Assembly: GCA_964353335.1 (NCBI GenBank)
Contig: CAYGVI010000005.1
Location: 1,858 to 65,857, forward strand
Direction of reading: 5' to 3'
Source: an uncultured Methanosarcinales archaeon
GTDB taxonomy: Archaea > Nanobdellota > Nanobdellia > Woesearchaeales > ARS49
Length of the DNA: 64,000 bases
The position numbers and the translations under genes were made by a program. Each line of letters opens with the position of its first letter. Positions within the stretch are counted from its first letter, which is position 1. The notes beneath the pieces were generated by a model. That model saw only the letters and a program-made list of their open reading frames with translations, was not told the DNA's origin and ran no database searches. Of the stretch, positions 4,131 to 54,543 are shown piece after piece.

Positions 4131-4661
4131 GTGGGAAGAACCAAACTTTTACTGATTGCTGGGATTCTGGTGCTGCTGCTAATACTCATTGTATTTTTTG
4201 TGTTATTCACAAATGCTTCTTTCTCTGAAACCAATGGCAGGGTTATGGAACCTGATGGCGCGCCTATCGAGGGCGCAAAGGTAACTATTGGTTATAGCTG
4301 CAAAGTGCCTGCAGTTGTTGAGAGCCAAACACGCAATTATGGGTCAGCAAGAGCCGTAACCAATGCTAATGGGGAATTCTCATTCAGCACGGTTTATGCA
4401 GGGTGGAAATTCCTTAATACTGATTGCCATAAAACAGTAGTTGCATTTAAGGAAGGTTATTGCGGGGATATTTCACGCTGCAAAACCGAGATACAGTATT
4501 CCCCTGGTCTTTCTGAAGGACAACTTCAAGGTGCAGACCAGTATTACATATTAAACTACAAAGGCAAATATTATGAGTCTGCAAGTTTTGATGCATCAAA
4601 ATGGCTTAATCCAGAGGAGAATTCTGTAACAATACAATTAAACAAGCTTGATACCGGGTAG
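4131..4661 (+). CDS. membrane-anchored protein with a carboxypeptidase-regulatory-like beta-sandwich
   Basis: GTG start. N-terminal TM (LLLIAGILVLLLILIVFFVLF). NGRVMEPDGAPIEGAKVTIGY resembles the CarboxypepD_reg motif. Confidence 0.5.
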   Translation: MGRTKLLLIAGILVLLLILIVFFVLFTNASFSETNGRVMEPDGAPIEGAKVTIGYSCKVPAVVESQTRNYGSARAVTNANGEFSFSTVYAGWKFLNTDCHKTVVAFKEGYCGDISRCKTEIQYSPGLSEGQLQGADQYYILNYKGKYYESASFDASKWLNPEENSVTIQLNKLDTG

Positions 4662-4807
4662 TTTTCTAGAATCCTTTGGTTGTATCAGGGTTTGGCTTTT
4701 AGTCACACATTTGTTTGAGGCAATCGCATATTTTTTATACATGCTCTTCCCCGCACGCAGATTATGGCCAGGTTTCGCATCTTCAAGACCGCGACGTACG
4801 ATGAGGA

Positions 4808-4972
4808 TTATGCAGGATTGGATATGTGCTTTGGCTTGATTTCTGTTATCCTACCGCGCTTGATATCCTCAAAACTTTTCTTTAGCTTCTCAACAAGCTC
4901 CCAGTCCACCTGAGACATCTCCTTAAGACGCTCATACTTAGCTCTTGGAATCGTGACTGTTTTTGTTGCCAT
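4808..4972 (-). CDS. small antitoxin-like protein, 54 aa (below the ORF-track cutoff)
   Basis: Hand translation gives MATKTVTIPRAKYERLKEMSQVDWELVEKLKKSFEDIKRGRITEIKPKHISNPA. The N-terminus resembles ribbon-helix-helix or VapB-like antitoxins. It lies 21 nt downstream of 4994..5260. Confidence 0.4.
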   Translation of the reverse strand: MATKTVTIPRAKYERLKEMSQVDWELVEKLKKSFEDIKRGRITEIKPKHISNPA

Positions 4973-4993
4973 CTTAATCACATTAATTAGTAA

Positions 4994-5260
4994 TTAGCTT
5001 CGCATCTCGATTTCCCTGATGTATGGGGTTTCTTGGGGGTAATTGTCGATTTTCTTTGGGTCTTTGCAGGACAGGTTTTTGACCATTTCAGCATACATTT
5101 CTCTTGAAAACTTGTCTGAGCTCTTAAGGCTCGCTTTTGCATAGCCCAGGAGCCTTAGCCGTAATTCGTTCCATGCCATGAACGCTCCTTTGTATGTTTT
5201 GTGAGCGCTATGTACGCTATTGTGTTCTGGTCCGTTATCGCCAACAAGGTATATCTTCAT
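4994..5260 (-). CDS. hypothetical protein, 88 aa
   Basis: ATG ORF directly upstream of the 54-aa ORF on the same strand. No motif recognised. Confidence 0.4.
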   Translation of the reverse strand: MKIYLVGDNGPEHNSVHSAHKTYKGAFMAWNELRLRLLGYAKASLKSSDKFSREMYAEMVKNLSCKDPKKIDNYPQETPYIREIEMRS

Positions 5261-5407
5261 GTTGAAATAATGCTCTGGGCGGTTGAGGGTGTGGACTCGC
5301 CCAGCAAAGAGCGTTTAGTTGCCCCCAGTACTAGGCATTTCTGCTTTTCCCTTTCTGCTCAAGCAATGGCGTAAACAACACAGGTATTATTTAATATTTT
5401 CTTTGAG

Positions 5408-5426
5408 ATCCGGAAACTTTCCGGAT
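5408..5426. promoter_or_regulatory. perfect palindrome ATCCGGAA-N3-TTCCGGAT (operator-like)
   Basis: 8-bp arms with a 3-nt spacer, about 20 nt upstream of the TATA-like box of the 5480 gene. Confidence 0.35.
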
Positions 5427-5447
5427 TTGATGAATTTGCCGGCAATA

Positions 5448-5458
5448 GTTTTAAAAAC
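5448..5458 (+). promoter_or_regulatory. TATA-like box for 5480..5803
   Basis: gttttaaaaac lies 22 nt upstream of the GTG start. Confidence 0.4.
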
Positions 5459-5479
5459 AAAAGAGTCTTTGTCTTTTTT

Positions 5480-5803
5480 GTGAATATTGAGGATTTCAAA
5501 AAGCTGGTGAGGAATCTTTCTGAGGCTGATGTTCTTACGGATGAGCCTCATGTTTCTATGCGTTGTGAAGAAAATAGTATAACGATTGATTTTGTGAAAA
5601 AGACTCTCCTTGGCCAGAATGCAGAGCTTGTCAGGCTGGTTGAGGACAGGCCGAATGTGTACAAGCTTTATTACCGCCTGAGCAAGCTGTGCGAGCTGAA
5701 ATTAGTGATTGACCTCTTAACGCACCAAAAGATCAACATCCGGACAGTCAAGATACTGAACAAGCAATCCCGAATCGCGTTCCTTTCAAGGCGAAGATTT
5801 TAA
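5480..5803 (+). CDS. DUF4258-like putative toxin
   Basis: GTG start. HVSMRCEENSITIDFVKKTL resembles the H-x3-R-x2-E-R-x-I signature region of DUF4258. It sits immediately upstream of a DUF2283 gene, which is a known pairing. Confidence 0.45.
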   Translation: MNIEDFKKLVRNLSEADVLTDEPHVSMRCEENSITIDFVKKTLLGQNAELVRLVEDRPNVYKLYYRLSKLCELKLVIDLLTHQKINIRTVKILNKQSRIAFLSRRRF

Positions 5804-5850
5804 ATACCACAGTATATAAATATATAAATAAAAAGAAATACCAAACAAAA

Positions 5851-6213
5851 ATGAGCGTTTCAAAAGACAAGTATTATTCGTGGGACTATAGTGAAAAATC
5901 TGATATTCTTAATGTTCACAAGGTTGACAAGAAAACAGCAGGCAGCGCAGAACTTGGGGACTTTACTGTGGACTTTGACAAAAATGGCAATATTGTTGGT
6001 GTTGAAATACTGAACGCATCAGAATTCTTCACACTCTTAGGCATTCTTAAAACACAATTGGAAAACATAAAAGAAGCGGAAATAATTATGAGAAAGCGCG
6101 GAGAAATGACACTAATCTGCCTTAAACTGCTTTTATCCGGAGAAGAAGCGCCACGCATTGTGTCATTGCCCGCAAGCGTCATGAACGAAGCGCCAATAAC
6201 CGCAACAGCCTGA
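5851..6213 (+). CDS. DUF2283 family protein (putative antitoxin) with a C-terminal extension
   Basis: WDYSEKSDILNVH and DFDKNGNIVGVEILNAS match the YD-x-E-x-D-x-L and G-x-IVGIEILNAS signatures of DUF2283. Confidence 0.65.
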   Translation: MSVSKDKYYSWDYSEKSDILNVHKVDKKTAGSAELGDFTVDFDKNGNIVGVEILNASEFFTLLGILKTQLENIKEAEIIMRKRGEMTLICLKLLLSGEEAPRIVSLPASVMNEAPITATA

Positions 6214-6461
6214 TTCAGAAACCAAGGTCAGCGCGGACAAATTTCTTTCTGCGGATATTCTTTGCAAAGCGGATAAGACGCCGGTAAAGGTATGTTTTTT
6301 CAGCAATCATATCTCCCAAATAGATAAAAGGATATTTAAGACTAATGAAACAACACCGCATTAGTGCTAAAAACTTCAAGCGTAACTTGTGGCTTTTTCG
6401 TAGCTACACGGTATTTTGCCCTTTTTTATTGTCGTGATAATGCCGTCAGAAGGTGGAAGTT

Positions 6462-6492
6462 AAGGTCAACGCCCGGTGAGAAGGTTGACCTT
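6462..6492. terminator. 9-bp hairpin (aaggtcaac / gttgacctt) with a 13-nt loop, flanked by T-runs
   Basis: Perfect inverted repeat seen directly. It lies 55 nt downstream of the tRNA-Asp 3' end on the minus strand. Confidence 0.3.
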
Positions 6493-6546
6493 TTAGGTTT
6501 TCTGGAAAAAATTATCGTCGATAAATATGCCTGAAAAATAAAAAAG

Positions 6547-6619
6547 CGCCCACGCCGGGATTTGAACCCGGGTCGGGACCGCGACAGGGTCCCATCCTAG
6601 GCCACTAGACTACATGGGC
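6547..6619 (-). tRNA. tRNA-Asp (anticodon GTC)
   Basis: Hand-folded cloverleaf. Acceptor GCCCATG/CGTGGGC, anticodon stem GGACC/GGTCC, loop CTGTCGC, T arm CCGGG-TTCAAAT-CCCGG, discriminator G. CCA is not encoded. Confidence 0.9.
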
Positions 6620-6760
6620 AAATTGATTGTGTCTATTGACGGCATTACGAATAAATGGCGGGTTTTTAAACCTTTTGAGTGTTTGCCAGCAAGATATTTA
6701 AAGACCCGTGAATAAGCAAAGTGCTGAGTGAGGGGCGGAGTGAAGACCGCTTTTTTTGAA

Positions 6761-7147
6761 ATGCATTGTTCAACAAGCTTTGACATAACGCACAGTGTTG
6801 CTGACCTTGTGGAAAGGGTTATGGACGCTTACAAGGGCCCGTTCAGTTTCAACAAGTTTAAGGAAGTTAGTACACCTGTTAGTGCACATAATAGTTCTTC
6901 AGTCATTTACACCGGCGCGGTTGATGTGATAATTTTCAGAAACCCGAACAAGGCTGTCAAGGGCAAAAACGCATACTGCAAGAACAGGGAGAGTTATGTC
7001 AGCATCACAATAAGCGGCCCTGACCAAAGCGTAATACACGGCATTGAAGCATATCTTGAGAAGAATGTTCCTGCAATCGGCAGGCGTATGCACAAAATAT
7101 CAACATACAACAGCAACGCAGGCCACATTGTAAAAAGAGCGCAGTAA
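6761..7147 (+). CDS. hypothetical protein
   Basis: The ORF track lists 6728..7147 with a GTG start. The first ATG is at 6761, downstream of a TATA-like gatatttaaag near 6693. No motif recognised. Confidence 0.4.
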   Translation: MHCSTSFDITHSVADLVERVMDAYKGPFSFNKFKEVSTPVSAHNSSSVIYTGAVDVIIFRNPNKAVKGKNAYCKNRESYVSITISGPDQSVIHGIEAYLEKNVPAIGRRMHKISTYNSNAGHIVKRAQ

Positions 7148-7149
7148 AA

Positions 7150-7983
7150 TCACTTTGCGAATTTCTGGTAAACCATTTCTTCCTGCTTGACCATGTTATG
7201 CGTGAAGTCACTATAGGAGATTACTCTTGCCCTGTCGCCTTCTTTCACATTCACTTTGATTGGCAGCCCTGTTATCATTTCCAGGTGCAAAGTGTATTCG
7301 TCGCCGTTCTCTACAAATGTGAGCACGGGGTTTACCGCCTTCCAGCCTGTTAAGTCCTTGACATACTGGTCATTTGCCTGGGCAACTGTCGGTGAAGCGT
7401 AAGAGAACCTTGTAAGCCAGTCTTCAGGCAGTATCGGGTTGTAGTCTTCGTAAGGCAGGACAAATTCCATGTCTATTATTCTCGCGCAGTTGCTCCTGTC
7501 AGGGTCAAACTCGCCAAGAATTTCCCCTTCCCTGCGCGGGTCGCAGTAGCCCACAGCCTTTTTTTCGCTCCTGTCGATGAAAATGTCAGTGATTGTCACA
7601 GGAATGGTTCTGTTGACCCTCATATCCAGTTTTTTGATGAATTTAGGCTCAATGCGGACAAGGTTTCCCCTTACCAAATATTTTGTTTCGCCTTCCTGGT
7701 ATGAATAGCCTGTCACTTTCTGCCTGAATTTTATCATCGCGTCAGAAATGTGGCTGTTTTTAGGCGTCTGTGGCCCAATAGTCTTGTTGATTTGCGGCAA
7801 TGTACTGTTCTCATACCTGTCGCATATCTGGTTTGGCTCAGCGTCAAGGCAGCAGTCGCCTGGTGAATACTCATAATAAGGCTGCTTGCATTCTGTTACC
7901 GTTGCGTTCTGCTGTGGAATAACCGCAGGCTGGCAGCCAATCAGGAAAATTATTGCCAGAACCAGCAAAACATTGCGCATCAT
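7150..7983 (-). CDS. putative lipoprotein or secreted protein
   Basis: MMRNVLLVLAIIFLIGCQP is signal-peptide and lipobox-like. The track ORF extends to a TTG at 8010. Confidence 0.55.
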   Translation of the reverse strand: MMRNVLLVLAIIFLIGCQPAVIPQQNATVTECKQPYYEYSPGDCCLDAEPNQICDRYENSTLPQINKTIGPQTPKNSHISDAMIKFRQKVTGYSYQEGETKYLVRGNLVRIEPKFIKKLDMRVNRTIPVTITDIFIDRSEKKAVGYCDPRREGEILGEFDPDRSNCARIIDMEFVLPYEDYNPILPEDWLTRFSYASPTVAQANDQYVKDLTGWKAVNPVLTFVENGDEYTLHLEMITGLPIKVNVKEGDRARVISYSDFTHNMVKQEEMVYQKFAK

Positions 7984-42930: not shown

Positions 42931-44472
42931 ATGGCGCGCATCTACTCAGCTGTTTTCCCGGTCAACAGCAGAAAGACTCTTGATGACCTTACAGGAGTTG
43001 TTGCTGAATGGATTGCATCAAGCCCGTACAGGAAAATCAACAGGGCTGAAATTTCTGGAATTGCGCAGGACGGGTTTATGTTCGAAAAGGGCCATGTTAC
43101 AATTCACACCGTCCGCTACGAAGGCCGCCACTATGAAAAACAGCATGACCTTGGCGTGCAGAAAAGCATTGGCATCCGCCTGGTGGAGCAGAAGCAGGGG
43201 GCTGTGCGCACCTCAGAGGTTGTCGGACACATTGCAAATGACAAGTTCAATGTCGTGTTCACCAATGATTATGAGGCAACAAGGACAGGAGAAAAATACG
43301 GAAAAATACTGAAGCCAAGGATAGTCAATGACATTATCCGCGCGCTTGGCGGCGGCTATGACGGCCTTGACCTCGAAGTCAAGACAACGCCGCACTGGAT
43401 TATGGATGATGACCTTCCTTTTGTCGCAGACATTATCAGGAACAAGTCTGAAAACACGCTTCCTGTGGTTTATGTCAGCAGGTACAGGCAGGATATAACG
43501 CCTGTCAACCCAAATGACCTTGCTTTCCTGCTTGGCGGAATTGCCCACGTTATTGTGGAGCCTTCGCCGTCAATTCCTTTCACTTTCAATCTGAAGGACG
43601 CGACAAAGGGCATCAATGCGTACAATGGCGCAGTGGGCATTTACTGGCCCAATGGAGTCCGCCATCATTTGCTGCCGAAAACAACGACCGCACCGGAAAC
43701 AGGCTCATTGGCGCCAGAAACCGGCTCGTTGACACCCGGAACCAGCGCAATGGTAGATGAGATTCATGAAATTATCAGGGAAAGCGCGCTGTACACAGTG
43801 GTTCCTGACTGCAGCACTTTCAACGGCATAAAGGGATTGCAGACTGCAAAGCGCTTTGAGGATTTGAAAAAATCCCACGCAGCAAAGATTGTGGAAATCG
43901 AGCAGTCAAAAAAAACCGGTGCGGATATAACCACGCTTGAGGACCAGGTTAAAGAGCTTAATGCACTGCTCCAACTTGCATCAGATGAAACTGGAAACAG
44001 AGACACCCAGATTGAGGATCTTAAGCGGCAAAATTATGGAATGGGGCAGCAGCTTGCCAGATTCCAAAAGAAAGCAGGCACAGGCGGAGAAATGCTCACT
44101 GTGCCTCCGGACATGAATGAGTTTTATTCAGGAGAACTGCGCGACATGGTCATTGCGGCTCTTGACAACTACTTCACAAACAACCTCACTGACACAAGAA
44201 GGGCTGACATGATACGCGCAATCCGCGAAGCAAACCAGCCAAGCAACACAGGAGAGGAGATTCTCGAACAGATTCAGAAGATTTTCAAGAGCACAAAGCC
44301 TGTTGACAAGGTCATGAGCCAGCTCAGGACTCTTGGTTTTATTGTTGATCAGACAGGGGAAGTGCGCGTGACAATTCCAGGAAGCGGAAGGCAGGTTCAC
44401 ATTTCAGGCACTCCGGGCGACCTCCACTCAAGGGAAATTGAGCTTAGAAGGATCTTTAAGAAACTGCTATAA
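42931..44472 (+). CDS. orphan protein, 513 aa
   Basis: Long ATG ORF. It has an N-terminal globular part, a tandem APETGSL-APETGSL linker and a coiled-coil region (EDQVKELNALLQLASDE...IEDLKRQN). No motif recognised. Confidence 0.6.
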   Translation: MARIYSAVFPVNSRKTLDDLTGVVAEWIASSPYRKINRAEISGIAQDGFMFEKGHVTIHTVRYEGRHYEKQHDLGVQKSIGIRLVEQKQGAVRTSEVVGHIANDKFNVVFTNDYEATRTGEKYGKILKPRIVNDIIRALGGGYDGLDLEVKTTPHWIMDDDLPFVADIIRNKSENTLPVVYVSRYRQDITPVNPNDLAFLLGGIAHVIVEPSPSIPFTFNLKDATKGINAYNGAVGIYWPNGVRHHLLPKTTTAPETGSLAPETGSLTPGTSAMVDEIHEIIRESALYTVVPDCSTFNGIKGLQTAKRFEDLKKSHAAKIVEIEQSKKTGADITTLEDQVKELNALLQLASDETGNRDTQIEDLKRQNYGMGQQLARFQKKAGTGGEMLTVPPDMNEFYSGELRDMVIAALDNYFTNNLTDTRRADMIRAIREANQPSNTGEEILEQIQKIFKSTKPVDKVMSQLRTLGFIVDQTGEVRVTIPGSGRQVHISGTPGDLHSREIELRRIFKKLL

Positions 44473-44661: not shown

Positions 44662-44771
44662 GGGCCCGTAGCTCAGCCTGGTCAGTTTGCCGCTGTAAAA
44701 AGCGACTACTGAGGCACTAGAGCAGCTGGCTTTTAACCAGCTGGTCGCGCGTTCAAATCGCGTCGGGCCCG
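44662..44771 (+). tRNA. tRNA-Lys (anticodon TTT) with an intron of about 35 nt in the D arm (non-canonical position)
   Basis: Acceptor GGGCCCG/CGGGCCC, D stem GCTC...GAGC interrupted at about 44686-44720, anticodon arm GCTGG-CTTTTAA-CCAGC, T arm GCGCG-TTCAAAT-CGCGT, discriminator G. Confidence 0.8.
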
Positions 44772-44796: not shown

Positions 44797-45039
44797 ATGG
44801 GAAAAGAATTTGACGTGAGCAAACACGTACTGGTTCCGAAACACGTGAAACTCAGCGAGAAAGAAAAGAAAGACCTCTTTGACAGGTATGTTGCAGACCT
44901 TCGCGACCTTCCAAGGGTATACAAGGATGACCCTGCGATACAGGGGCTTGACGCAAAGGAAGGCGACATTATCAAAATCGCAAGGAAATCGCCGACAGCA
45001 GGCGAGGCAGTGTTCTACAGAAGGGTGGTGAGCAGATAA
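44797..45039 (+). CDS. rpoH: DNA-directed RNA polymerase subunit H (Rpo5)
   Basis: HVLVPKHVKLSEKEKKDLF...IKIARKSPTAGEAVFYRRVV is typical of RpoH. Position is first in the rpo operon. Confidence 0.9.
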   Translation: MGKEFDVSKHVLVPKHVKLSEKEKKDLFDRYVADLRDLPRVYKDDPAIQGLDAKEGDIIKIARKSPTAGEAVFYRRVVSR

Positions 45040-46526
45040 TGCCAAGCATAGCCAAGACGCTCATCGCAAAGCATTTCGCTGACAATTCTTTGGTGAACAG
45101 CAACATTGAGAGCTTTAACTTCTTTGTCGAGCACGAACTGCAGAGGATAGTCAACGAGAACAAGGACATTGAGCCCACAATCATTCCGCCAAATGTTGAG
45201 TCATTCAAGATACGCCTTGACAAGATTGAGGTCAAGGTGCCAACGATAACAGAGGCAGACGGCTCAGTCAGGGAGCTTCTCCCTGTCGAGGCAAGGCTGA
45301 GGAAGCTCAGCTACGCAGCGCCTGTATTCATCGAGGTCTCTTCGCACATCAATGATGTCCAGAGGGAGACTTTCACAACACAGATTGGCTCGCTTCCGAT
45401 AATGCTCAAGAGCAAGAAGTGCCACCTTAGCAAGATGTCAAGGGAGGAGCTCATCAAGAATGGCGAAGACCCTGACGACCCAGGAGGCTACTTCATAATC
45501 AACGGTACAGAGCGTGTCCTTGTCAACATCGAGGACCTTGCAAGCAACAGGTTTATCGTGGAGGAAAGCTCAGGCGTAACAAACTTCACAGGCAAGCTCT
45601 TCTCGGAAAACGGCCCGTTCAAGATTCCGCACACGATTGAGCGCCTCAAGGACGGATTGTTCTACCTTTCGTTCACCCGCGTCAAGCGCGTCCCTATTAT
45701 AATAGTCGTCAAGGCCCTCGGGCTGCTGAAGGATGAGGAAATAATGCAGTCCATCTCAAAGGACAAGCAGTATGACGAAGTGCTCATCAACCTTTTCGAG
45801 TTTGTCAACGTGAAGAACAGCGAGGACGCGATTGACTACATCGCAAAGAAGATAGGCATCACGCAGGCAAAGGAAATCCGCCTGGAAAGGATGAACGAAA
45901 TAATTGACAAGTATCTGCTTCCGCACGTCGGGACTCTCAAGGAGGACAGGATTTTCAAGGCATACAACATCTGCAAGATGCTGCGCAAGTACATTGCGGG
46001 CGCAAACGGCGAAGTGCCATTGGACGACAAGGACCACTACATGAACAAGCGCATCAAGATGTCAGGCGACTTGCTTGGTGACCTGTTCCGCATGAACCTC
46101 AAGGTGCTTATCGGCGACATTCTCTACAACTTCCAGCGCATCGTTAAGCGCGGCAAGTTCCCAAGCATCAGGGTGATTATCCGCGACAAGCTTCTCACAA
46201 GCAGGATTTACAGCTCAATGGCGACAGGAAACTGGGTCGGCGGAAGAAAAGGAGTTTCGCAGAGAATCCAGCGCCTTAACCACCTGAACACAATCTCACA
46301 CTTGCAGCGTGTTGTCTCGCCCTTGTCAAGCTCGCAGGAGAACTTCGAGGCACGCGAGCTTCACGCAACACACCTTGGCAGGCTCTGCCCGGCAGAAACG
46401 CCTGAAGGAACAAACATCGGACTCAGAAAGAACCTTGCCCTTTTCGCGCAGGTCTCAAAGGAAACTGACGAGCAGGAAGTATTGAAACAGCTCAAGGGAA
46501 TGGGCATGAGGAGCGTGCGACCGTGA
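45039..46526 (+). CDS. rpoB2: RNA polymerase subunit B'' (N-terminal half of Rpo2)
   Basis: Conserved Rpb2 N-terminal blocks (SFNFFVEHELQRIV, GGYFIINGTERVLV, LSSSQENFEARELHATHLGRLCPAETPEG). 1-nt overlap with rpoH. Confidence 0.95.
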   Translation: MPSIAKTLIAKHFADNSLVNSNIESFNFFVEHELQRIVNENKDIEPTIIPPNVESFKIRLDKIEVKVPTITEADGSVRELLPVEARLRKLSYAAPVFIEVSSHINDVQRETFTTQIGSLPIMLKSKKCHLSKMSREELIKNGEDPDDPGGYFIINGTERVLVNIEDLASNRFIVEESSGVTNFTGKLFSENGPFKIPHTIERLKDGLFYLSFTRVKRVPIIIVVKALGLLKDEEIMQSISKDKQYDEVLINLFEFVNVKNSEDAIDYIAKKIGITQAKEIRLERMNEIIDKYLLPHVGTLKEDRIFKAYNICKMLRKYIAGANGEVPLDDKDHYMNKRIKMSGDLLGDLFRMNLKVLIGDILYNFQRIVKRGKFPSIRVIIRDKLLTSRIYSSMATGNWVGGRKGVSQRIQRLNHLNTISHLQRVVSPLSSSQENFEARELHATHLGRLCPAETPEGTNIGLRKNLALFAQVSKETDEQEVLKQLKGMGMRSVRP

Positions 46527-48325
46527 GTGAGATATTTGTTAACGGCAAGTTCGCAGGGGATATTGACAATGGAAAGGAGTTTGTCAGCCAGATACGCTCT
46601 GCACGCAGGGCAGGAACGCTTTCCTCAAACATGAACGTGATGCTCGAAGAGCACCTTAACCAGGTTTTCATCGAGACAAACCGCGGAAGGACAAGAAGGC
46701 CATTGATTGTTGTCAAGGACGGAATCCCGCTTCTCACTGAAAAGCACATCAAGCAATTGCAGAAGAATGAGATAAGCTGGAATGACCTTGTCCAGCAGGG
46801 AGTAATAGAATACCTTGACGCAGGAGAGGAGGAGAACGCGCTCCTCGCATTTGACGAAAAAGAGCTAACTCCTGAGCACACGCATTTGGAAATCACCCCG
46901 TTGGCAATGATGGGAATCGTTACAACACTTGTTCCGTTCGGAGACCACAACCCTTCAGCAAGGCTTGCAATCGGCTCAAAGAACCAAAAGCACGCAATCG
47001 GGTTCTATGCCGCGAACTTCCCTGCAAGGATGGATATGGACGTCAACCTTTTGCACACTCCTCAGGTTCCGATAGTGCAGTCAATAATGCACGAGCTTTC
47101 GGGCTATGAGACCCACCCCTGCGGCCAGAACATTGTCGTTGCGGTGATGAGCTACAAGGGCTACAACATGGAGGACGCAGTCATCCTCAACCGCGGCTCA
47201 ATCGAGCGCGGATTTGCGCGTTCAAGCTACTTCCGCCCGGCTGTCGCAGAGGAATTGAGGTACTCAGGCGGGCTTATGGACAACATCTGCATCCCTGACA
47301 AGGAAGTCAAGGGATACAAGAGCGAAAAAGACTACAGGATGCTTGAAGGCGACGGAATAATCTATCCTGAAGCCCAGGTCAGGGAAGAGGATGTCATAAT
47401 CGGAAAGACCTCGCCGCCAAGGTTCCTCAGCTCGCTTGAAGAATACTCACTCTCATCAAACATCCGCCGCGAGAGCTCAGTTGCTTTGAGGCACGGCGAG
47501 GAAGGGGTTGTTGACTTTGTCCTCATTACTGAAAACGAGGAGGGAAACAAGCTCGTCCAGGTCAGGATACGCGACCAGCGCATCCCTGAAATCGGCGACA
47601 AGTTCTGTTCAAGGCACTCACAAAAGGGAGTTGTCGGATTGATCGTGCCTGAGTCAGACATGCCATACTCTGCGTCAGGAATAGTCCCTGACATGCTTTT
47701 CTCGCCGCACTCAATCCCGTCGCGTATGACGATGGCGCACCTGCTTGAGCTGTTGGGCGGAAAGATGGGCGCGCTGGCAGCAAGGCACATTGACGGCACA
47801 ACCTTTGAGTCAGAGCCTGAAGAGGCAATGCGAAGGGAGCTTTTGTCATTGGGATTCCGCGAGAACGGAACAGAAACACTGTACAATGGAATCACGGGCG
47901 AAAAGCTGGATGCCCAGATTTACATCGGAAGCATGTACTATCTCAAGCTCAAGCACATGGTCGCGAACAAGATACACTCTCGTGCACGCGGCCCAATCCA
48001 GCTTCTCACAAGGCAGCCGACAGAAGGAAGGGCAAAGGAAGGCGGCCTCAGGCTTGGAGAAATGGAAAAGGACACATTTGTCGCGCACGGAGCCTCATTG
48101 CTGCTCAAGGAGCGCTTTGACTCTGACAAGACAGTTGTCCCAATCTGCGAAAACTGCGGAGTCATCGCGATTCACGACACTTACAAGGACAAGCGCTACT
48201 GCCCGATATGCGGGGACAATGTTGACGTGAATGACATTGAAATCAGCTACGCATTCAAGCTCATACTGGACGAATTCAAGTCGCTTGGAATATATCCAAA
48301 GCTCGTCCTGAAAAACAAGTACTAA
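46523..48325 (+). CDS. rpoB1: RNA polymerase subunit B' (C-terminal half of Rpo2)
   Basis: GYNMEDA, GDKF-x-SRH-x-QKG, MPY...G-x-VPD, RLGEME and a C-terminal Zn ribbon CENCG...CPICG. GTGA overlap with rpoB2. Confidence 0.95.
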   Translation: MSEIFVNGKFAGDIDNGKEFVSQIRSARRAGTLSSNMNVMLEEHLNQVFIETNRGRTRRPLIVVKDGIPLLTEKHIKQLQKNEISWNDLVQQGVIEYLDAGEEENALLAFDEKELTPEHTHLEITPLAMMGIVTTLVPFGDHNPSARLAIGSKNQKHAIGFYAANFPARMDMDVNLLHTPQVPIVQSIMHELSGYETHPCGQNIVVAVMSYKGYNMEDAVILNRGSIERGFARSSYFRPAVAEELRYSGGLMDNICIPDKEVKGYKSEKDYRMLEGDGIIYPEAQVREEDVIIGKTSPPRFLSSLEEYSLSSNIRRESSVALRHGEEGVVDFVLITENEEGNKLVQVRIRDQRIPEIGDKFCSRHSQKGVVGLIVPESDMPYSASGIVPDMLFSPHSIPSRMTMAHLLELLGGKMGALAARHIDGTTFESEPEEAMRRELLSLGFRENGTETLYNGITGEKLDAQIYIGSMYYLKLKHMVANKIHSRARGPIQLLTRQPTEGRAKEGGLRLGEMEKDTFVAHGASLLLKERFDSDKTVVPICENCGVIAIHDTYKDKRYCPICGDNVDVNDIEISYAFKLILDEFKSLGIYPKLVLKNKY

Positions 48326-48326
48326 A

Positions 48327-48767
48327 ATGGAAACACAAAAAGATACGCAGAGATGTAATTCACTAGTTCCAGAACCAACTGAAATGAATTGCCTGGAAAA
48401 TATGCTTGTAACTGCAGCCAGAACAAAAGGAGTCAGCGCAAGGGTGGACTCGCAGAATGAGTCAACACTCCTTGTTGATATTGACTCTGGCTTTTCAGGC
48501 AACATGGCATTCACATTGGACCAAAAGGACAAAAACACAATTTATTGCTCTGCCAAGTCATACAAGATGGGCGGGGATTACCGCATAAGGGATGCGCTTG
48601 CAAAGGCAGGCATTTCTTCAGAAGTGGTTCCCTCAGGCCCTGAAGGCTACAGCAATGAAGTCAAGTTCACAGTTCCATACACTGCGTTTGAAAACTACGA
48701 AGCATTTGAAAAAGCAGTTGATGCTGTTTACACAACATTCAAGAAAATGGAATCAAACGGAGTATAA
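48327..48767 (+). CDS. orphan 146-aa protein embedded between rpoB' and rpoA'
   Basis: The ATG is 1 nt after the rpoB' TAA, and its own TAA abuts the rpoA' ATG. No motif recognised. Confidence 0.6.
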   Translation: METQKDTQRCNSLVPEPTEMNCLENMLVTAARTKGVSARVDSQNESTLLVDIDSGFSGNMAFTLDQKDKNTIYCSAKSYKMGGDYRIRDALAKAGISSEVVPSGPEGYSNEVKFTVPYTAFENYEAFEKAVDAVYTTFKKMESNGV

Positions 48768-51569
48768 ATGCCAAGAAAAAAGAAAGAAGAAGCGGTTGAA
48801 GCACCGCAGGCAAAGGACGCGCTCGCAGCAGCGACAGAGCCAGAAGCTCCTGTTGTCAAGGTTGCTCCTGCCAGCGAAGAGACCATGAAGGCAGAAGTGG
48901 CGCAGAAGCGCACTGAGAAGCTTGCCACAGAAGAGGAAAAGGCTGTTGCCGCAGTAGCTGAGGTTCCAAAGAAGCCAATCTCGCCTGAGCGCATTGAGGC
49001 GCAGGTGCACTCTGTGTTTAAGCAGGTTGAGAGCGTTGTTTTCGGCCTTTTGAGCCCGAAGATGATAAAGAAAATGGCTTCAGCAAAGATTGTCACTCCT
49101 GAACTTTATGACAAGGAAGGTTATCCTGTTGACGGCGGCCTTATGGACGTCCGCCTTGGAGTCATTGACCCTGGATTGAGGTGCAAGACCTGCGGAAGCA
49201 AGCTCAAGGAATGCATCGGCCACTTTGGCTACATTGAGCTCGCCCGCCCTGTTGTCCACGTCAAGTTCGCAAGAATAATCCAGTCGCTTTTGAAATGCAC
49301 CTGCAAGGAATGCGGAAGGATTCTTATCCCGCAGGAAAAGATAACCCGCTACAATGCCCTGCTTAATGAGGTTGAGCAGGCAGAGGGAATTGAGGCGCGC
49401 AGGGCAAAGATAAAGGAGATAATTGACTCAACCAAATCAACCAACAAGTGCCCGCACTGCAAGGCAAAGCAGACAAAGATAACCATTGAGAAGCCAACCA
49501 CGTTCATGGAGGGCGAAAAGCGCCTGAGCCCGATTGAAGTCCGCGCGCGCCTTGAGAAGATTCCGGACGATGACTGCAAGCTCTTCGGCATTGACCCGAC
49601 TTACGCGCGCCCTGAATGGACAATTTTGACTGTTCTCGCAATTCCTCCTGTCACAGTGCGCCCAAGCATCACTCTTGAATCAGGAGAGCGCTCAGAAGAC
49701 GACCTTACGCACAAGCTCGGCGACATTGTCAGGATTAACCAGCGCCTGTTTGAAAACATCAACGCAGGAGCGCCTGAAATCATAATCGAGGACCTGTGGG
49801 ACCTTTTGCAGTACCACGTCACAACGTTCTTTGACAACACAATCGCGCAGGTTCCGCCTGCAAGGCACCGCTCAGGACAGCCCTTGAAGACAATCACAGA
49901 GAGAATCAAGAGCAAGGAAGGAAGAATCAGGCACAACCTCGCAGGAAAGAGGACAAACTTCTGCGCGCGCTCGGTCATCTCGCCTGACCCAATGCTCAAG
50001 ATTAACGAGGTCGGAGTGCCGAAAGTGATGGCAATGAAGCTCACAGTTCCGGAAACAATCAATGACTGGAACATGGCATACTTGAAGAAGTTCGTCGAAA
50101 ACGGGCCGGGCAAGTATCCGGGTGCGAACTATGTTGTGCGCCCTGACGGAAAGAAGAAAAAGATAACAGACGAGACAAAGGAGGCTGCGCTTGAGGAGCT
50201 GCAGCCGGGCTATGTCGTTGAAAGGCACATAATGGACGGCGACATCGCAATTTTCAACAGGCAGCCGTCATTGCACAGGATGAGCATGATGTGCCACCGC
50301 ATCAAGGTTTTGCCGGGAAGGACTTTGCGCCTCAACCCTGCAGTCTGCGCGCCGTACAACGCTGACTTTGACGGAGACGAAATGAACCTTCACATTCCAC
50401 AGACAGAGGAATCTCGCGCAGAGGCTGAGATTTTGATGGAAGTCCAGACACAGCTTGTCTCGCCAGGCCACGGAATGTCCGCGATTGGCTGCATCCACGA
50501 CGGAATTTCAGGAAACTTCCTGCTCACATCAGAGCTTGAGCTTGACCGCGAAAAGGCAATTGAGCTGCTTTGCGCAGCCGGCGTCACAGAGTTTTCAAGG
50601 CTGCCGCACAAGAAGACAGTGCCGGGAAAGGAAATATTCAGCGTTTTGCTGCCGGAAGACTTCAACTACAAGGGAACTGACAAGGCAGGAGCGCCTGTTG
50701 TTGTCGAGAATGGAAAGCTTGTTGAGGGAGTCATTGACAAAAACAGCGTCGGAGGAGAGGGCTCAGGAGTCATGCTCAGGACCCTGCACAGGTATTACGG
50801 CCCTGCAAGGACAGTTGACATTTTGCACAAGATACTGAAGCTCGGAATTGAGGTGCTTCTCATGACAGGATTCAGCGCCCCAATCTCTGACAATGACCTT
50901 CCAAAGGCAGCGAATGACCAGATTGACGAAACCCTCACAAAGGCAGAGGAGGAAGTCAATGTCATAATCAAGAGCTTCCACGAAGGCACGCTTGATGCAT
51001 TCCCAGGGCGCACTCTCGCTGAGACTCTTGAGCTCAAGATACTTGAAGTTTTGAACCGCGCGCGTAACAAGTGCGGTCAGATTGTCAAGGAGAACACTCC
51101 AAAGGACATCCAGACAATGATAATGGTCAAGTCAGGTGCGCGTGGTAACATACTCGCGCTGACGCAAATGAGCGCATGTGTCGGACAGCAGGCTCTCAGG
51201 GGCAAGCGCATTGACAAGGGATACACAGGAAGGACATTGAGCTGCTTCAAGAAGGGCGATTTGTCGCCTGAAGCGCGCGGATTTGTCAGGCACGGCTTCA
51301 AGCACGGCCTTAACCCGCGCGAGTTCTTCTTCCACGAGATAACAGGAAGGGACTCGCTTATGGACACTGCTTTGCGTACTCCAAAGTCAGGTTATCTGTA
51401 CCGCAGGCTGGCAAATGCAATGCAGGACCTGCGCGTCGAGTATGACAGGACTGTCCGTGACGCAAACGGAAGGATTATCCAGTTCGAGTACGGTGAGGAC
51501 GGTATTGATGTTTCAAGGTCAGAAAGCGGCCAGATTGATGTTCAAAAAATAATTGACTCGGTGAAATGA
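48768..51569 (+). CDS. rpoA1: RNA polymerase subunit A' (Rpo1N) with an A/E/K-rich N-terminal extension of about 85 aa
   Basis: FGLLSP, Zn site C-x2-C...GHFGYIEL, NADFDGDEMN active site and other Rpb1 blocks. The canonical N-terminus starts near residue 85. Confidence 0.95.
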   Translation: MPRKKKEEAVEAPQAKDALAAATEPEAPVVKVAPASEETMKAEVAQKRTEKLATEEEKAVAAVAEVPKKPISPERIEAQVHSVFKQVESVVFGLLSPKMIKKMASAKIVTPELYDKEGYPVDGGLMDVRLGVIDPGLRCKTCGSKLKECIGHFGYIELARPVVHVKFARIIQSLLKCTCKECGRILIPQEKITRYNALLNEVEQAEGIEARRAKIKEIIDSTKSTNKCPHCKAKQTKITIEKPTTFMEGEKRLSPIEVRARLEKIPDDDCKLFGIDPTYARPEWTILTVLAIPPVTVRPSITLESGERSEDDLTHKLGDIVRINQRLFENINAGAPEIIIEDLWDLLQYHVTTFFDNTIAQVPPARHRSGQPLKTITERIKSKEGRIRHNLAGKRTNFCARSVISPDPMLKINEVGVPKVMAMKLTVPETINDWNMAYLKKFVENGPGKYPGANYVVRPDGKKKKITDETKEAALEELQPGYVVERHIMDGDIAIFNRQPSLHRMSMMCHRIKVLPGRTLRLNPAVCAPYNADFDGDEMNLHIPQTEESRAEAEILMEVQTQLVSPGHGMSAIGCIHDGISGNFLLTSELELDREKAIELLCAAGVTEFSRLPHKKTVPGKEIFSVLLPEDFNYKGTDKAGAPVVVENGKLVEGVIDKNSVGGEGSGVMLRTLHRYYGPARTVDILHKILKLGIEVLLMTGFSAPISDNDLPKAANDQIDETLTKAEEEVNVIIKSFHEGTLDAFPGRTLAETLELKILEVLNRARNKCGQIVKENTPKDIQTMIMVKSGARGNILALTQMSACVGQQALRGKRIDKGYTGRTLSCFKKGDLSPEARGFVRHGFKHGLNPREFFFHEITGRDSLMDTALRTPKSGYLYRRLANAMQDLRVEYDRTVRDANGRIIQFEYGEDGIDVSRSESGQIDVQKIIDSVK

Positions 51570-51643
51570 TGAAAATGAACGCATTTTCAGCACCATCGTC
51601 AACCTCATCTAGATGTATGACTGAAAGGAGGTTGACGAGGTAA
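51566..51643 (+). other. 25-codon relay ORF that bridges rpoA' and rpoA''
   Basis: Its ATG overlaps the rpoA' TGA (ATGA) and its TAA abuts the rpoA'' ATG. The peptide is MMKMNAFSAPSSTSSRCMTERRLTR. It contains the AAGGAGGT that precedes rpoA''. Confidence 0.2.
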
Positions 51644-52780
51644 ATGACTCACGCAGAACTGAAGGAATATGAGGACAAGATGCCTCCGAAGCTGTTGCAG
51701 GAGCTTGAGGAGAAGTGCCCTGCCAGCAAGCTCAAGAGGGCTGCTGAAAAGCTGTACCAGGAATTCCTTGCTGCGCGCATTGACCCTGGAGAGGCAGTCG
51801 GCCTGATTGGCGCAGAAAGCATCGGCGAACAGGGCACGCAGATGACACTGGACACATTCCACTTCGCAGGAGTCGCTGAGCTCAACGTCACAATGGGTTT
51901 GCCCCGTATTATTGAGATTCTTGACGGAAGAAAGACACTCGCGACGCCAATGATGGAGATTTTCCTCAAGGCGCCTTACAACAAGGGCAAGGATATCCGC
52001 GAGCTTGCGCTCAGGATTAAGGAAACAAAGCTTCACGAGCTTGTTACTGATTACGTAATCAACATAGTTGACATGAAGATTGAGATAAAGCTCAATGTGC
52101 AGAAGATGCAGGACATCGGCGTAACACCTTTAGCGCTTGGCAAGGCAATGGAAAAGGACATTGGAAAGGCAGGCACTGTAAAGCAGGGCGACGGCGTTGT
52201 CGAGGTCAAGCTGAAAGGCAAGGACGAAAAGAACCTCAATGAGCTTTACAAGATGAAGGAAGACCTTAAGACCATACACATAACAGGAATCAAGGGCATC
52301 ACCCAGGTTCTTCCTGTCAAGAGGCACGATGAATTCATCATTATCACAGCCGGCACAAACCTGAAGAAGGTTCTTGAGCTGGACTTTGTGGACCCAACAA
52401 GGACCGTAAGCAATGATATTTACGAAATTGCCGAAGTGTTTGGAATCGAGGCTGCAAGGCAGGCAATTATTGACGAGGTTTTCAAGGTCATTGAGGCGCA
52501 GGGTTTGACAGTTGACATCAGGCACATAATGCTTGTCGCTGACACAATGTGTGTTTCAGGCGGCGTAAAGGGCATCACCCGTTATGGTGTTGTGTCTGAG
52601 AAGGCGTCTGTTTTGGCGCGTGCTTCGTTCGAGACGCCTATCAAGCACATAATCAACGCTGCCTTGGCTGGCGAGGTTGACGAGCTTGACTCTGTAGTTG
52701 AGAACATAATGCTTAACCAGCCTGTGCCTGTCGGAACAGGGCTGCCAGGGCTGATTACAAGGGTAAAGAAGGAGAAGTGA
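51644..52780 (+). CDS. rpoA2: RNA polymerase subunit A'' (Rpo1C)
   Basis: GEAVGLIGAESIGEQGTQMTLDTFHFAG and the C-terminal FETP...LAGE...ENIMLNQ blocks. Confidence 0.95.
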   Translation: MTHAELKEYEDKMPPKLLQELEEKCPASKLKRAAEKLYQEFLAARIDPGEAVGLIGAESIGEQGTQMTLDTFHFAGVAELNVTMGLPRIIEILDGRKTLATPMMEIFLKAPYNKGKDIRELALRIKETKLHELVTDYVINIVDMKIEIKLNVQKMQDIGVTPLALGKAMEKDIGKAGTVKQGDGVVEVKLKGKDEKNLNELYKMKEDLKTIHITGIKGITQVLPVKRHDEFIIITAGTNLKKVLELDFVDPTRTVSNDIYEIAEVFGIEAARQAIIDEVFKVIEAQGLTVDIRHIMLVADTMCVSGGVKGITRYGVVSEKASVLARASFETPIKHIINAALAGEVDELDSVVENIMLNQPVPVGTGLPGLITRVKKEK

Positions 52781-52784
52781 AAAT

Positions 52785-53063
52785 ATGGCTGATACTGCTG
52801 CGGAAATAAGGAAATTGATGGCTGACAAGAGGCTTGTGCTCGGTACAGCGCAGGCAATGAAGCTTGTCAGGCAGGGCAAGCTCGCAAAGATTTATTTGTC
52901 CTCAAACTGCCCGCCAAAAGTGAAAGAGGACCTGCAGAAGTACTGCGGATTGGCAGGCATAGAGTGCCAGGATCTGCCTGTTTCCAACGAGGAGCTTGGA
53001 GTCTGGTGCAAAAAACCGTTTGCGATTTCTGTCGTGGGCGTTCTTAAGAGTGCAGCGCAATGA
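52785..53063 (+). CDS. rpl30e: ribosomal protein L30e
   Basis: LVLGTAQAMKLVRQGKLAKIYLSSNCP is typical of eL30. Canonical position after rpoA''. Confidence 0.85.
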   Translation: MADTAAEIRKLMADKRLVLGTAQAMKLVRQGKLAKIYLSSNCPPKVKEDLQKYCGLAGIECQDLPVSNEELGVWCKKPFAISVVGVLKSAAQ

Positions 53064-53491
53064 GTTCAAAGATTGTTTACGACACCGGCACCATGCAGGT
53101 CATCGCGCATTTTGAGCAGATGACGCGCGCAAGGGTGAGGGACTGCATAATCACAGAACAGCAGGTTATTTTCATTGTTGAGCCTGGCGATATTGGCAAG
53201 GCTATTGGTCCGCGAGGGGCTAATATTCGCCGCATTGAGGCTGGTTTGAAGAAGAAAGTCAAGATTGCAGAGTTTTCGCACGAACTAGTAACCTTTATAA
53301 AGAACTTGGTTTATCCCATCGACGTGAGGGAGGTCAAGGAGCAGGACGACGGGGTCGTCGTGCTTGTGCCTCCGGATCTTAAGGCAAGGGGTCTTCTGAT
53401 CGGCAGAAACGCCCAGACATTAAGGGCGTACGAGTCTGTCGTGCAGAGGTACTTTCCGATAAAAGAACTAAAGGTAGCTGATTATGGCTAA
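53060..53491 (+). CDS. nusA: archaeal NusA-like protein (two KH domains)
   Basis: GxxG KH loops ([11 protein letters not shown] and [10 protein letters not shown]). Canonical position. ATGA overlap with rpl30e. Confidence 0.85.
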
Positions 53492-53921
53492 CAAAAGCAA
53501 CGGGCTGAACACTGCAAAGAGATTGAAGCAGCGAAGGCACCACAGCAGGATGCTGAAAAAGATGTTTGTACGCCGCATACTCAACACCCGCCGCACGTCA
53601 GACCCTCTTCAAGGCGCTTCGCAGGCAAAGGGGATTGTTTTGGAGAAGAGACAGGTTGAGGCAAAGCAGCCAAACTCAGCCATGAGGAAATGTTGCCGTG
53701 TGCAGTTGATTAAGAACGGCAAACAGGTTACTGCTTTTATGCCCGGCGACGGAGCGCAGAAGCTTATTGACGAGCACGATGAGGTTATTATTGAAAGCAT
53801 TGGCGGCCGCAAGGGCGGTCCTGTCGGCGACCTGTCAGGAATCAGGTGGCGCGTTATCAAGGTCAATGATCAAAGCCTTTTGGCATTACGCCAGAAGAAG
53901 ATAGAGAAGGCACGCAAGTAA
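53484..53921 (+). CDS. rps12: ribosomal protein S12 (uS12)
   Basis: KGIVLEK...[22 protein letters not shown]...DEHDEV. Confidence 0.95.
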
Positions 53922-53922
53922 A

Positions 53923-54543
53923 ATGGCAACTGAAGCTGAAACACAAAGTGAGATTCGGGTTTTCAACAAATGGGGAACTGCCGGAATAACAGTTGAAGAT
54001 CCGGGCTTGCAGCGCTATATTTCTACTCAAGCAAGGATTGTTCCAAAGACCGGTGCGCGCTATGCTGGGCGAAGGTTCCACAAGAGCAAGGTATTTATCG
54101 TTGAAAGATTGATTAACAAAGTCATGATTCCTGGCCACAAGTCAGGAAAGCATACTCGCACAAGTGAAAGCTGCACTGGAAAGGCAATAACCGCAATGGA
54201 AATTGTCAAGGGGACTTTTGAGATTATTGAAAGGCATCTGAAGCTCAATCCGGTCATGGTTTTTGTCAAGGCAATTGAGAATGCTGCTCCCCGCGAGGAA
54301 ATACTCACGATTGAATACGGCGGTGCCCGTTATCCTAAAGCAGTTGAATGTGCGCCTCAAAGGCGCATTGACTTGGTATTGCACTACCTGGTTGAAGGCG
54401 CTGCAGATAAATCGTTCAACAAGAAGAAAGGCATTGAGAACGCGCTTGCTGACGAGATAATCGCCGCTTACAGGATGGATTTGAAGTCTTTGGCAATATC
54501 GAAGAAGAACGAGATAGAAAGACAGGCTGATTCTGCGAGATAA
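53923..54543 (+). CDS. rps7: ribosomal protein S7 (uS7)
   Basis: Conserved uS7 blocks (ERLINKVM and NAAPREE). Position after rps12. Confidence 0.95.
   Translation: MATEAETQSEIRVFNKWGTAGITVEDPGLQRYISTQARIVPKTGARYAGRRFHKSKVFIVERLINKVMIPGHKSGKHTRTSESCTGKAITAMEIVKGTFEIIERHLKLNPVMVFVKAIENAAPREEILTIEYGGARYPKAVECAPQRRIDLVLHYLVEGAADKSFNKKKGIENALADEIIAAYRMDLKSLAISKKNEIERQADSAR

Follow-up and report, generated by a model that had tools for sequence, protein, structure and literature searches.

How does a small gene of no recognised family come to stand between the genes for the two catalytic subunits of an archaeal RNA polymerase (RNAP), and what might its product do there? The question is raised by an open reading frame (ORF) of 441 nucleotides (nt), 146 codons from ATG to TAA, at positions 48327 to 48767 of the forward strand of a 64,000-nt stretch of contig CAYGVI010000005.1, the whole of which is called the window here. 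The ORF lies between rpoB' and rpoA'. Few gene orders in Archaea are as stable as rpoH-rpoB-rpoA, and the subunit composition of RNAP has changed rarely and long ago. The insertion of this ORF can be dated to one small clade, and the states before it (in sister genomes that lack the ORF) and after it are both visible at single-nucleotide resolution.

A single insertion in a narrow clade

Homologues of the ORF product are few. A word-indexed protein search returned the clusters P0001 (99% identical) and P0002 (87%); P0003 (47% identity) came from an exhaustive HMMER scan over 1.84 billion representatives, P0006 (41% identity on the codon alignment, 39% by BLASTP) from a profile search, and P0010, which is about 90% identical to P0003, from a cluster look-up. 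A further profile search gave no new homologue, the searches having spanned up to about 15 billion proteins. The family amounts to nine different protein records, which fall into four clusters at 90%, all from one narrow clade. Two much longer proteins were set aside. P0004 (2026 amino acids, aa, reading like a bacterial adhesin) was rejected as a homologue because its E-value of 3.5e-17 sums 10 near-identical repeats, one of which scores 25.4 bits; P0005 (1228 aa, with surface-protein-like repeats, four matching stretches and an E-value of 7.5e-6) was rejected by analogy with that reasoning.

Relatives of RpoB' among the GTDB species representatives are all DPANN archaea, labelled Woesearchaeota or Nanoarchaeia. 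I surveyed 80 fetched loci (designated by L numbers), 73 of which have a readable rpoB'-rpoA' interval, and measured how far the core of RpoA' lies from the end of RpoB'. Orthologues of the ORF occupy the identical junction in five lineages (L001/L002, L003/L004, L086-L089, L090 and L091). The ORF is seen in at least eight independent assemblies, and since its same-junction orthologues lie on contigs from NCBI, Logan, JGI and ENA it is no assembly artefact. It is missing from L006-L010, the sister genomes, and from every other Woesearchaeal locus of the survey. In these five nearest ORF-less genomes, whose RpoB' is 88-90% identical to that of the window, only the N-terminal extension of RpoA' occupies the interval between RpoB' and the RpoA' core. 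An earlier annotation made from the window's letters alone (the first-pass annotation) had taken the ORF for a lineage-specific intrusion into an otherwise direct rpoB'-rpoA' pair, and the comparison of junctions bears this out.

A neighbour-joining tree of RpoB' that took in four of the ORF-bearing lineages places them in one clade, (((window, L001), L086), L090), sister to the ORF-less L006/L008/L010, with L007 and deeper lineages also lacking the ORF; L091, known from a contig of 999 nt, groups separately with L086. Since the bearers of the ORF form one clade and the closer outgroups join rpoB' directly to rpoA', one precise insertion accounts for the distribution. The insert is 381-441 nt long and is flanked by the 5-nt repeat AAATG. 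At ORF-less junctions the rpoB' stop is followed, after 1-5 nt, by ATGCCAAGAAA (ATG CCA AGA AA), the junction of L008 reading GTACTAAAATGCCAAGAAAAAAG, whereas the two junctions of the ORF in the window read TACTAAAATGGAA (with rpoB') and GGAGTATAAATGCCA (with rpoA'). The insert thus appears to have captured the old rpoA' ATG, which lies 1 nt after the rpoB' TAA, and to have brought a new GGAG...TAA-ATG for rpoA'. Comparison of the ORF with the window and 84 loci by tblastn and blastn yielded orthologues only, and neither a donor nor a paralogue. The IMG/VR contigs held no match and the JGI metagenome contigs only a contig that was already known. The flanks of the insert carry no mobile-element hallmarks, only the AAATG microhomology, and a literature search for such an rpoB'-ORF-rpoA' arrangement in Woesearchaeota found nothing relevant. 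That the ORF is a real gene, acquired by a single insertion before the members of one narrow Woesearchaeal (DPANN) clade diverged, I regard as close to certain.

Junctions and start codon

Both neighbours are confirmed as RNAP genes, by Rpb2 and Rpb1 domains in Pfam and by the B' and A' models of NCBIfam. The upstream partner, rpoB' (46523-48325, forward strand; 600 aa; TIGR03670 rpoB_arch, 890 bits), ends with a TAA at 48323-48325, and its joint with the ORF (48323-48329, forward) is TAC TAA A ATG GAA, in which the ATG is the one that starts rpoA' in relatives without the ORF. At the downstream joint (48759-48770, forward) the last two sense codons of the ORF hold a Shine-Dalgarno-like GGAG placed five bases ahead of TAA-ATG (GGA GTA TAA ATG CCA), and the stop abuts the start of rpoA' (48768-51569, forward; 933 aa; PRK08566, 1226 bits over residues 82-932), which is in the same frame with a single TAA between the two genes. 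The TAA-A-ATG junction is identical in L001, L086, L090 and L091; GGAG followed by TAAATG is kept at the 3' end of the ORF in all five lineages, and the C-terminal residues vary (GV or GA). This GGAG presumably acts as the ribosome-binding site of rpoA'. The coordinates and joints first given for the ORF were accurate, and its placement, with a 1-nt gap upstream and an abutting stop and start downstream, suits the co-transcription and translational coupling that had been proposed. From rpoH to S7 (44797-54543) each junction is a gap of at most 4 nt or an overlap; the tight spacing of the ORF is therefore the rule of the whole operon and nothing special to the ORF.

Public gene callers begin the product at an internal ATG (M20; 48384-48386, forward), which shortens it to 127 aa. 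The ATG at 48327 and an N-terminal M-x-T-A-x-D motif are kept in all orthologues, making 48327, the start originally annotated, the better choice and M20 probably not the true start. Within the ORF, an in-frame tandem duplication of 18 nt (48684-48719, forward; GCGTTTGAAAACTACGAA / GCATTTGAAAAAGCAGTT) matches the six-codon difference in length from the 126-aa orthologues. Over the ORF the GC content falls to 0.42-0.46, from about 0.52 on either side, and at third codon positions (GC3) it drops to 0.41-0.43, a value in the lower tail for genes of the window, where the flanking genes have 0.55-0.64. Shuffles that preserve composition yield an open frame of 146 codons at a frequency of only 6.5e-5.

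Constraint and rate of evolution

Ratios of non-synonymous to synonymous divergence (dN/dS) were estimated by the method of Nei and Gojobori, with p values from Fisher's test. The ratio is 0.31 for L090-L091 (p<1e-4), 0.39 for L086-L090 (p=2e-4) and again for the short-range pair L086-L091 (p=0.024), 0.43 for window-L086 (p=3e-4) and 0.62 for window-L090 (p=0.03); in the flanking RNAP genes it is 0.06-0.09. The dN of the ORF is about ten times that of the neighbouring genes, and on its stem dN exceeds the flanking dS. Differences in deep pairs fall 48/27/61 on the three codon positions. The frame has stayed open in all five lineages while about 35% of nucleotides diverged; random substitution would leave it without a stop with a probability of 0.008 for window-L086 and 0.03 for L086-L090. 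The three indels, of 13, 1 and 6 codons, are all in frame. The open frame, the in-frame indels, the codon bias and the dN/dS below 1 together indicate that the family is protein-coding and under purifying selection, and this selection is weak.

Predicted fold

The first-pass annotation had recognised no domain in the product, and the profile libraries agree. Nothing in Pfam exceeds its threshold, the only hit being CRIM1_C, whose 20.6 bits fall short of the cutoff of 27.2, an assignment discarded as sub-threshold and not reproduced in the orthologues. No model in NCBIfam, PHROGs or PADLOC matches the product, nor one in Rfam, and a profile of five orthologues run against all PDB sequences retrieved no YbjN chain and nothing usable. 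The product is not hydrophobic overall (grand average of hydropathy -0.49), and the family is acidic, with isoelectric points of 4.8-6.1 and charges at pH 7 of -1.3 to -6.1.

AlphaFold2 (AF2) gives a confident alpha/beta model, with a predicted local distance difference test score (pLDDT) of 75.7 and a predicted template-modelling score (pTM) of 0.70 from the single sequence, rising to 82.8 and 0.79 with five sequences; the first 18 or so residues are of low confidence. Its helices (19-34, 83-93 and 125-143) and strands (38-44, 47-52, 58-64, 71-78, 98-103 and 109-117) follow the order alpha-beta(4)-alpha-beta(2)-alpha. The top Foldseek matches in the PDB are the YbjN-family structures E. coli YbjN 6vu7 (E 7e-5, probability 1.0), Erwinia AmyR 5fr7, Methanothermobacter MTH 3cxj and Deinococcus DR_1245 4h5b, followed by the type III secretion (T3S) chaperones 1xkp (SycN/YscB) and 1s28 (AvrPphF ORF1), members of class I. 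AmyR has the order alpha-beta3-alpha-beta2-alpha (helices 10-20, 67-82 and 115-138; strands 34-35, 47-53, 56-64, 88-92 and 100-106), and this secretion-chaperone-like order, which goes with a fold whose three helices pack against one face of an antiparallel sheet, is found in the predicted model with one extra strand. Like these proteins, the ORF product is small (126-146 aa across the family, class I T3S chaperones having about 130 aa) and acidic. Its best-conserved stretch, residues 82-106 (GG..IRDAL..GI.S..V..GPE), maps to the central helix of the model and the loop and strand that follow, and the rest diverges fast. The YbjN family resembles it in this, its most conserved parts being the central helix and the loop after it, where the dimer interface lies, with surfaces that vary freely and are very divergent (PMC5398634). 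The product is best described as a predicted secretion-chaperone-like sandwich, at the level of the fold only and with borderline scores, and the family as a new orphan family whose fold is probably known.

Probable translational coupling and a second bridging ORF

The packed string begins with rpoH (44797-45039) and rpoB'' (45039-46526), continues through rpoB', the ORF and rpoA' to rpoA'' (51644-52780), and then runs on to L30e, NusA, S12 and S7. As the insert reused the old ATG and supplied a new restart site, the gene sits in an unbroken coupled chain from rpoH to S7. Ribosomes finishing rpoB' would restart on the ORF and those finishing the ORF would restart on rpoA', which would tie the output of the small protein to the amounts of both catalytic subunits. 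Loss of the ORF's frame, whether through an early stop or a frameshift, would cut the synthesis of RpoA', and this would keep the frame open. I consider a translational relay of this kind through the ORF fairly probable. It would resemble the termination-reinitiation coupling known at overlapping or abutting stop and start codons of prokaryotic operons in that the ORF takes over the restart site upstream and provides another at its own end, within a chain of gaps of at most 4 nt, and would differ in that the putative relay is a newly inserted gene between two essential catalytic-subunit genes.

A second insertion in the same operon has a similar form. Between rpoA' and rpoA'' the window strain carries 74 nt that are absent from L001, L004, L086 and L090, and these create a bridging mini-ORF of 25 codons (51566-51643, forward; MMKMNAFSAPSSTSSRCMTERRLTR, then the stop) whose ATG overlaps the rpoA' TGA, whose TAA abuts the rpoA'' ATG and which has GGAGG inside it. 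No similar sequence was found elsewhere in the window or the loci. The mini-ORF repeats the bridging layout and thereby supports the view that selection on the 146-aa ORF acts partly to keep it a translatable bridge; an insertion in this operon would survive only if the flow of ribosomes to the essential downstream genes continued.

A candidate role and a candidate client

What, then, might the protein do? On the predicted fold it would most likely be a dimeric protein-binding chaperone or adaptor, and neither an enzyme nor a DNA binder. In chaperone-effector gene pairs the chaperone gene adjoins the gene for a product with a long non-globular N-terminus. The clients of T3S chaperones, often the products of a neighbouring gene, are held by extended segments at their N-termini (in part PMC5398634). 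The ORF, similarly, adjoins rpoA', whose product has a long non-globular N-terminus: a K/E/A/P-rich extension of about 84 aa (48768-49019, forward) that lies outside the RpoA' profile, the match to which begins at residue 82-85. This disordered extension, encoded immediately downstream, would be the most plausible client. It is found across this Woesearchaeal group with a variable sequence and predates the ORF. The ratio of its dN to that of RpoB' is 0.76-1.1 in three pairs within the ORF-bearing clade and 1.9-5.4 in all 18 other pairs, its synonymous divergence being ordinary, which offers a lead that the extension gained a binding partner when the ORF arrived. The function would be an accessory one under weak constraint, the protein of the window lineage having diverged rapidly until it is now near neutrality, and the product is best read as probably non-essential. 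Taken as a whole, this reading (a gene gained once, a coupled relay and an RNAP-linked chaperone or adaptor) is a tentative one that I would place somewhat below even; that the product works as a chaperone or adaptor linked to RNAP is, for its part, possible but rather doubtful.

Several observations weigh against this reading. Some come from the window's nearest relative carrying the gene, L001, whose RpoB' is 99.3% identical. Here the ORF differs by 24 non-synonymous and 7 synonymous changes, a dN/dS of 0.99, and its substitutions are spread 12/10/9 over the codon positions where those of its neighbours run 6/1/30, 1/1/13 and 5/0/23. The window-L001 substitutions fall as readily on columns that the other orthologues conserve as elsewhere (odds ratio 1.1, p=1), and in a relative-rate test of Tajima the window side has 38 unique changes and the L086 side 7 (p=4e-6). 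The window's copy is thus accelerated and may be decaying; relaxed constraint or positive selection could lie behind this, and 31 substitutions are too few for the two to be told apart. The structural argument is also open to doubt. YbjN matches have E-values of 7e-5 to 5e-4 and probability 1.0, yet their template-modelling (TM) scores of 0.40-0.47, set against a same-fold level of at least 0.5, and their root-mean-square deviations (rmsd) of 5.3-6.6 Å are borderline. With the better model the C-terminal domain of T4 MotA (target-normalised TM 0.58-0.64) and ACT-domain proteins score similarly, and hmmscan against Pfam at E<=1 found neither YbjN (PF10722) nor CesT in the window ORF, P0003 or P0006. 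Unlike the YbjN and T3S proteins, then, the ORF product lacks profile membership and has the additional strand, and unlike those of T3S chaperones its host is an archaeon without a T3S system, its gene lies within an RNAP operon and its partner is only a candidate. The low GC3 fits a gene of low expression or foreign origin better than a stoichiometric partner, and the constraint on the extension amounts to 5-8.5 non-synonymous changes per pair, in pairs that are not independent. Sister lineages without the ORF have the RpoA' extension and a working RNAP. A role of the product as an accessory subunit or regulator of RNAP is an inference from position, predicted fold and this one weak signal of co-variation.

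Alternative explanations

One alternative discards the client altogether: a foreign or orphan cassette would have landed at a permissive point of the operon, its product having no role at RNAP, or none in the window lineage, and its frame would persist mainly because stops and frameshifts uncouple rpoA', with what constraint there is on its amino acids reflecting avoidance of misfolding or toxicity or some minor unrelated function. The near-neutral comparison of window and L001, with its even codon positions and its disregard of conserved columns, fits this, as do the roughly fivefold acceleration of the window lineage, the tenfold dN, the low GC3 and the very narrow phyletic range; and the mini-ORF of the same layout arose independently at rpoA'/rpoA'', while unrelated small ORFs occupy the same junction in L013, L037 and L051. 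Against it stand the dN/dS of 0.31-0.39 among the 126-aa orthologues, significantly below 1 even over the short range of L086-L091, the confident and complex alpha/beta fold predicted from the single window sequence, the conserved helix-loop-strand motif of a kind typical of interfaces, and the greater constraint on the RpoA' extension within the ORF-bearing clade. I think this explanation somewhat unlikely, about on a par with the RNAP-linked function itself. The first-pass annotation had named absence from close relatives together with a lack of purifying selection as telling against its reading; the ORF is indeed absent from its sisters, but selection is present among the orthologues (0.31-0.62) and goes undetected only between window and L001. 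Another alternative, that the ORF is no protein gene and has arisen by chance, belongs to a structured RNA or a spacer, or is an artefact of assembly, could appeal to the dip in GC, to an RNA folding z-score of -2.0 (4 of 100 shuffles fold as well) and to the same neutral-looking nearest pair. The comparative data effectively refute it: the frame has been kept through deep divergence with in-frame indels only, in many assemblies and against long odds of arising by chance, deep pairs show the codon-position bias and the lowered dN/dS of a coding sequence, and AF2 predicts a confident fold. A structured RNA in particular was set aside, Rfam holding no match and the folding score being only -2.0.

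Two further alternatives take the connection with transcription more literally. The gene could be a modulator captured from a virus in the course of conflict, perhaps of the MotA 'double-wing' type, that modulates or protects RNAP in an arms race between host and virus or host and symbiont, in which case positive selection would lie behind the bursts of change that the window lineage shows. The DNA-binding C-terminal domain of T4 MotA (1kaf, 5jlt), which is small, of alpha/beta type and active on the machinery of transcription, is the best target-normalised structural match (rmsd 3.8-4.1 Å over about 125 columns; query-normalised TM 0.46-0.49 to the alignment-based model). Predicted viral structures match best in uncharacterised phage proteins (TM 0.50-0.63), and an orphan gene of low GC3 with lineage-specific acceleration and a stem dN above the flanking dS would suit such an origin. 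The identity to MotA is, however, 10-12%, the net negative charge is unfavourable for DNA binding of the MotA kind, the N-terminal sigma-binding domain is lacking, and IMG/VR contigs, PHROGs and PADLOC yield no relative; nor do mobile-element hallmarks flank the insert beyond AAATG, and a dN/dS near 1 on so few substitutions is indistinguishable from relaxation. ORF145/RIP of the virus ATV, an inhibitor of archaeal RNAP that is likewise small (about 145 aa) and was considered for its size and transcriptional context, plugs the DNA-binding channel of RNAP with its helix-4 and C-terminal tail (PMC9501531); its complex 7oq4 is absent among the top 50 Foldseek hits listed for the ORF, and the sequences show no similarity. 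A viral modulator is improbable. Less likely still is a canonical or stoichiometric RNAP subunit that has escaped recognition, whether a divergent Rpo8/RpoG or Rpo13 or a second Rpo11/L-like protein. The core-operon location and the coupled layout would fit one, as would weak partial Foldseek matches to Rpb11 and subunit L chains (query-normalised TM 0.34-0.37, target-normalised 0.40-0.52, about 90 columns). Rpo8 is a beta-barrel and Rpo13 is helical, and by this description the predicted sandwich of three helices and six strands is neither an oligonucleotide-binding (OB) barrel nor all-helical. Neither Pfam nor NCBIfam gives an RNAP-subunit match at E<=1, Rpo8, Rpo13, RpoL, Rpo10 and Rpo12 included, so that the concern that a known subunit had been overlooked is allayed. 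There is precedent for lineage-dependent composition in Rpo13 and Rpo8/RpoG, since archaeal RNAP varies by lineage and its small subunits can be clade-specific (PMC3479171). The range of the ORF is far narrower than theirs, one genus-level clade whose close sisters have 88-90% identical RpoB' and no ORF, and its evolution is far faster, at about ten times the rate of the RNAP subunits.

How does this leave the original suggestion of a lineage-specific RNAP accessory subunit or regulator, or else a domesticated insertion? The insertion is indeed lineage-specific, but the narrow clade, the tenfold rate and the dN/dS of 0.99 in the window lineage argue against an indispensable core subunit, and the low GC3 likewise speaks against an essential role. 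The boldest version of the tentative chaperone or adaptor reading is that a genus-level DPANN clade has recently recruited a dedicated accessory protein for its RNAP, a coupled chaperone-like dimer that grips the RpoA' extension, and that the acceleration is adaptive co-evolution and not decay; such a protein might help the polymerase to assemble, tether it or regulate it. I consider this unlikely, though marginally less so than a viral modulator. If the product does bind RNAP, the locus would be a very young acquisition of a subunit or accessory factor, a live example of how multisubunit RNAPs gain subunits, and would give a function to the uncharacterised N-terminal extension of RpoA' in these DPANN. 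If it does not, the locus shows an essential coupled operon in which insertions are tolerated only when they form bridging ORFs and hand the ribosomes on. In either case the practical impact is small, the organisms being uncultured and the family tiny.

The junction in other Woesearchaeota and further observations

The rigid order of rpo genes from which the first-pass annotation argued turns out to be weaker in this phylum. In eleven loci (L033, L034, L040, L042, L043, L044, L046, L047, L056, L061 and L065) rpoA'' has moved between rpoB' and rpoA', and several of these carry further small ORFs just upstream of rpoA'. Small acidic orphan ORFs of 104-149 aa stand directly upstream of rpoA' in L013 (7812-8150), L037 (7813-8166) and L051 (2866-3180), and others upstream of rpoA' in L033 (9128-9478), L040 (5400-5720) and L042 (about 4237-4686). 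They are less tightly coupled than the window ORF, with gaps of 4-80 nt. By BLASTP only those of L033 and L040 resemble each other (60% identical), and a common family uniting the ORFs of L013, L037, L051, L033/L040 and L042 with that of the window was rejected at hhalign probabilities of at most 0.3%. I treat them as independent insertions, and small genes may have landed repeatedly at this site upstream of rpoA'. The rpoA'' homologue of L047 is itself unusual, being a 901-aa ORF (4815-7517) with a large intein-like insertion right after the GEPGTQM motif.

Many metagenome-assembled genomes whose RpoB' is 72-90% identical to the window's (for example L009, L012 and L014, from binchicken co-assemblies) are deposited as 'uncultured Methanosarcinales archaeon' and are apparently mislabelled.

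About 30 nt upstream of rpoH lies a tRNA-like element (44709-44766, forward) with the anticodon loop CUUUUAA (UUU, Lys). It scores 26.5 bits against an Rfam tRNA threshold of 29, and ARAGORN finds no tRNA there; it may be a tRNA of non-canonical form, or one that is split or degraded. Further upstream, a 513-aa orphan ORF (42931-44472, forward), whose homologue in L001 has no Pfam domain on record, differs from L001 at a dS of 0.33 with a dN/dS of 0.33. Between the same two genomes dS is 0.37 in S12 and 0.20 in S7 (together 53484-54543, forward), 0.04-0.11 in the rpo genes and 0.016 in L30e, a mosaic of divergence that suggests recombination between related populations.

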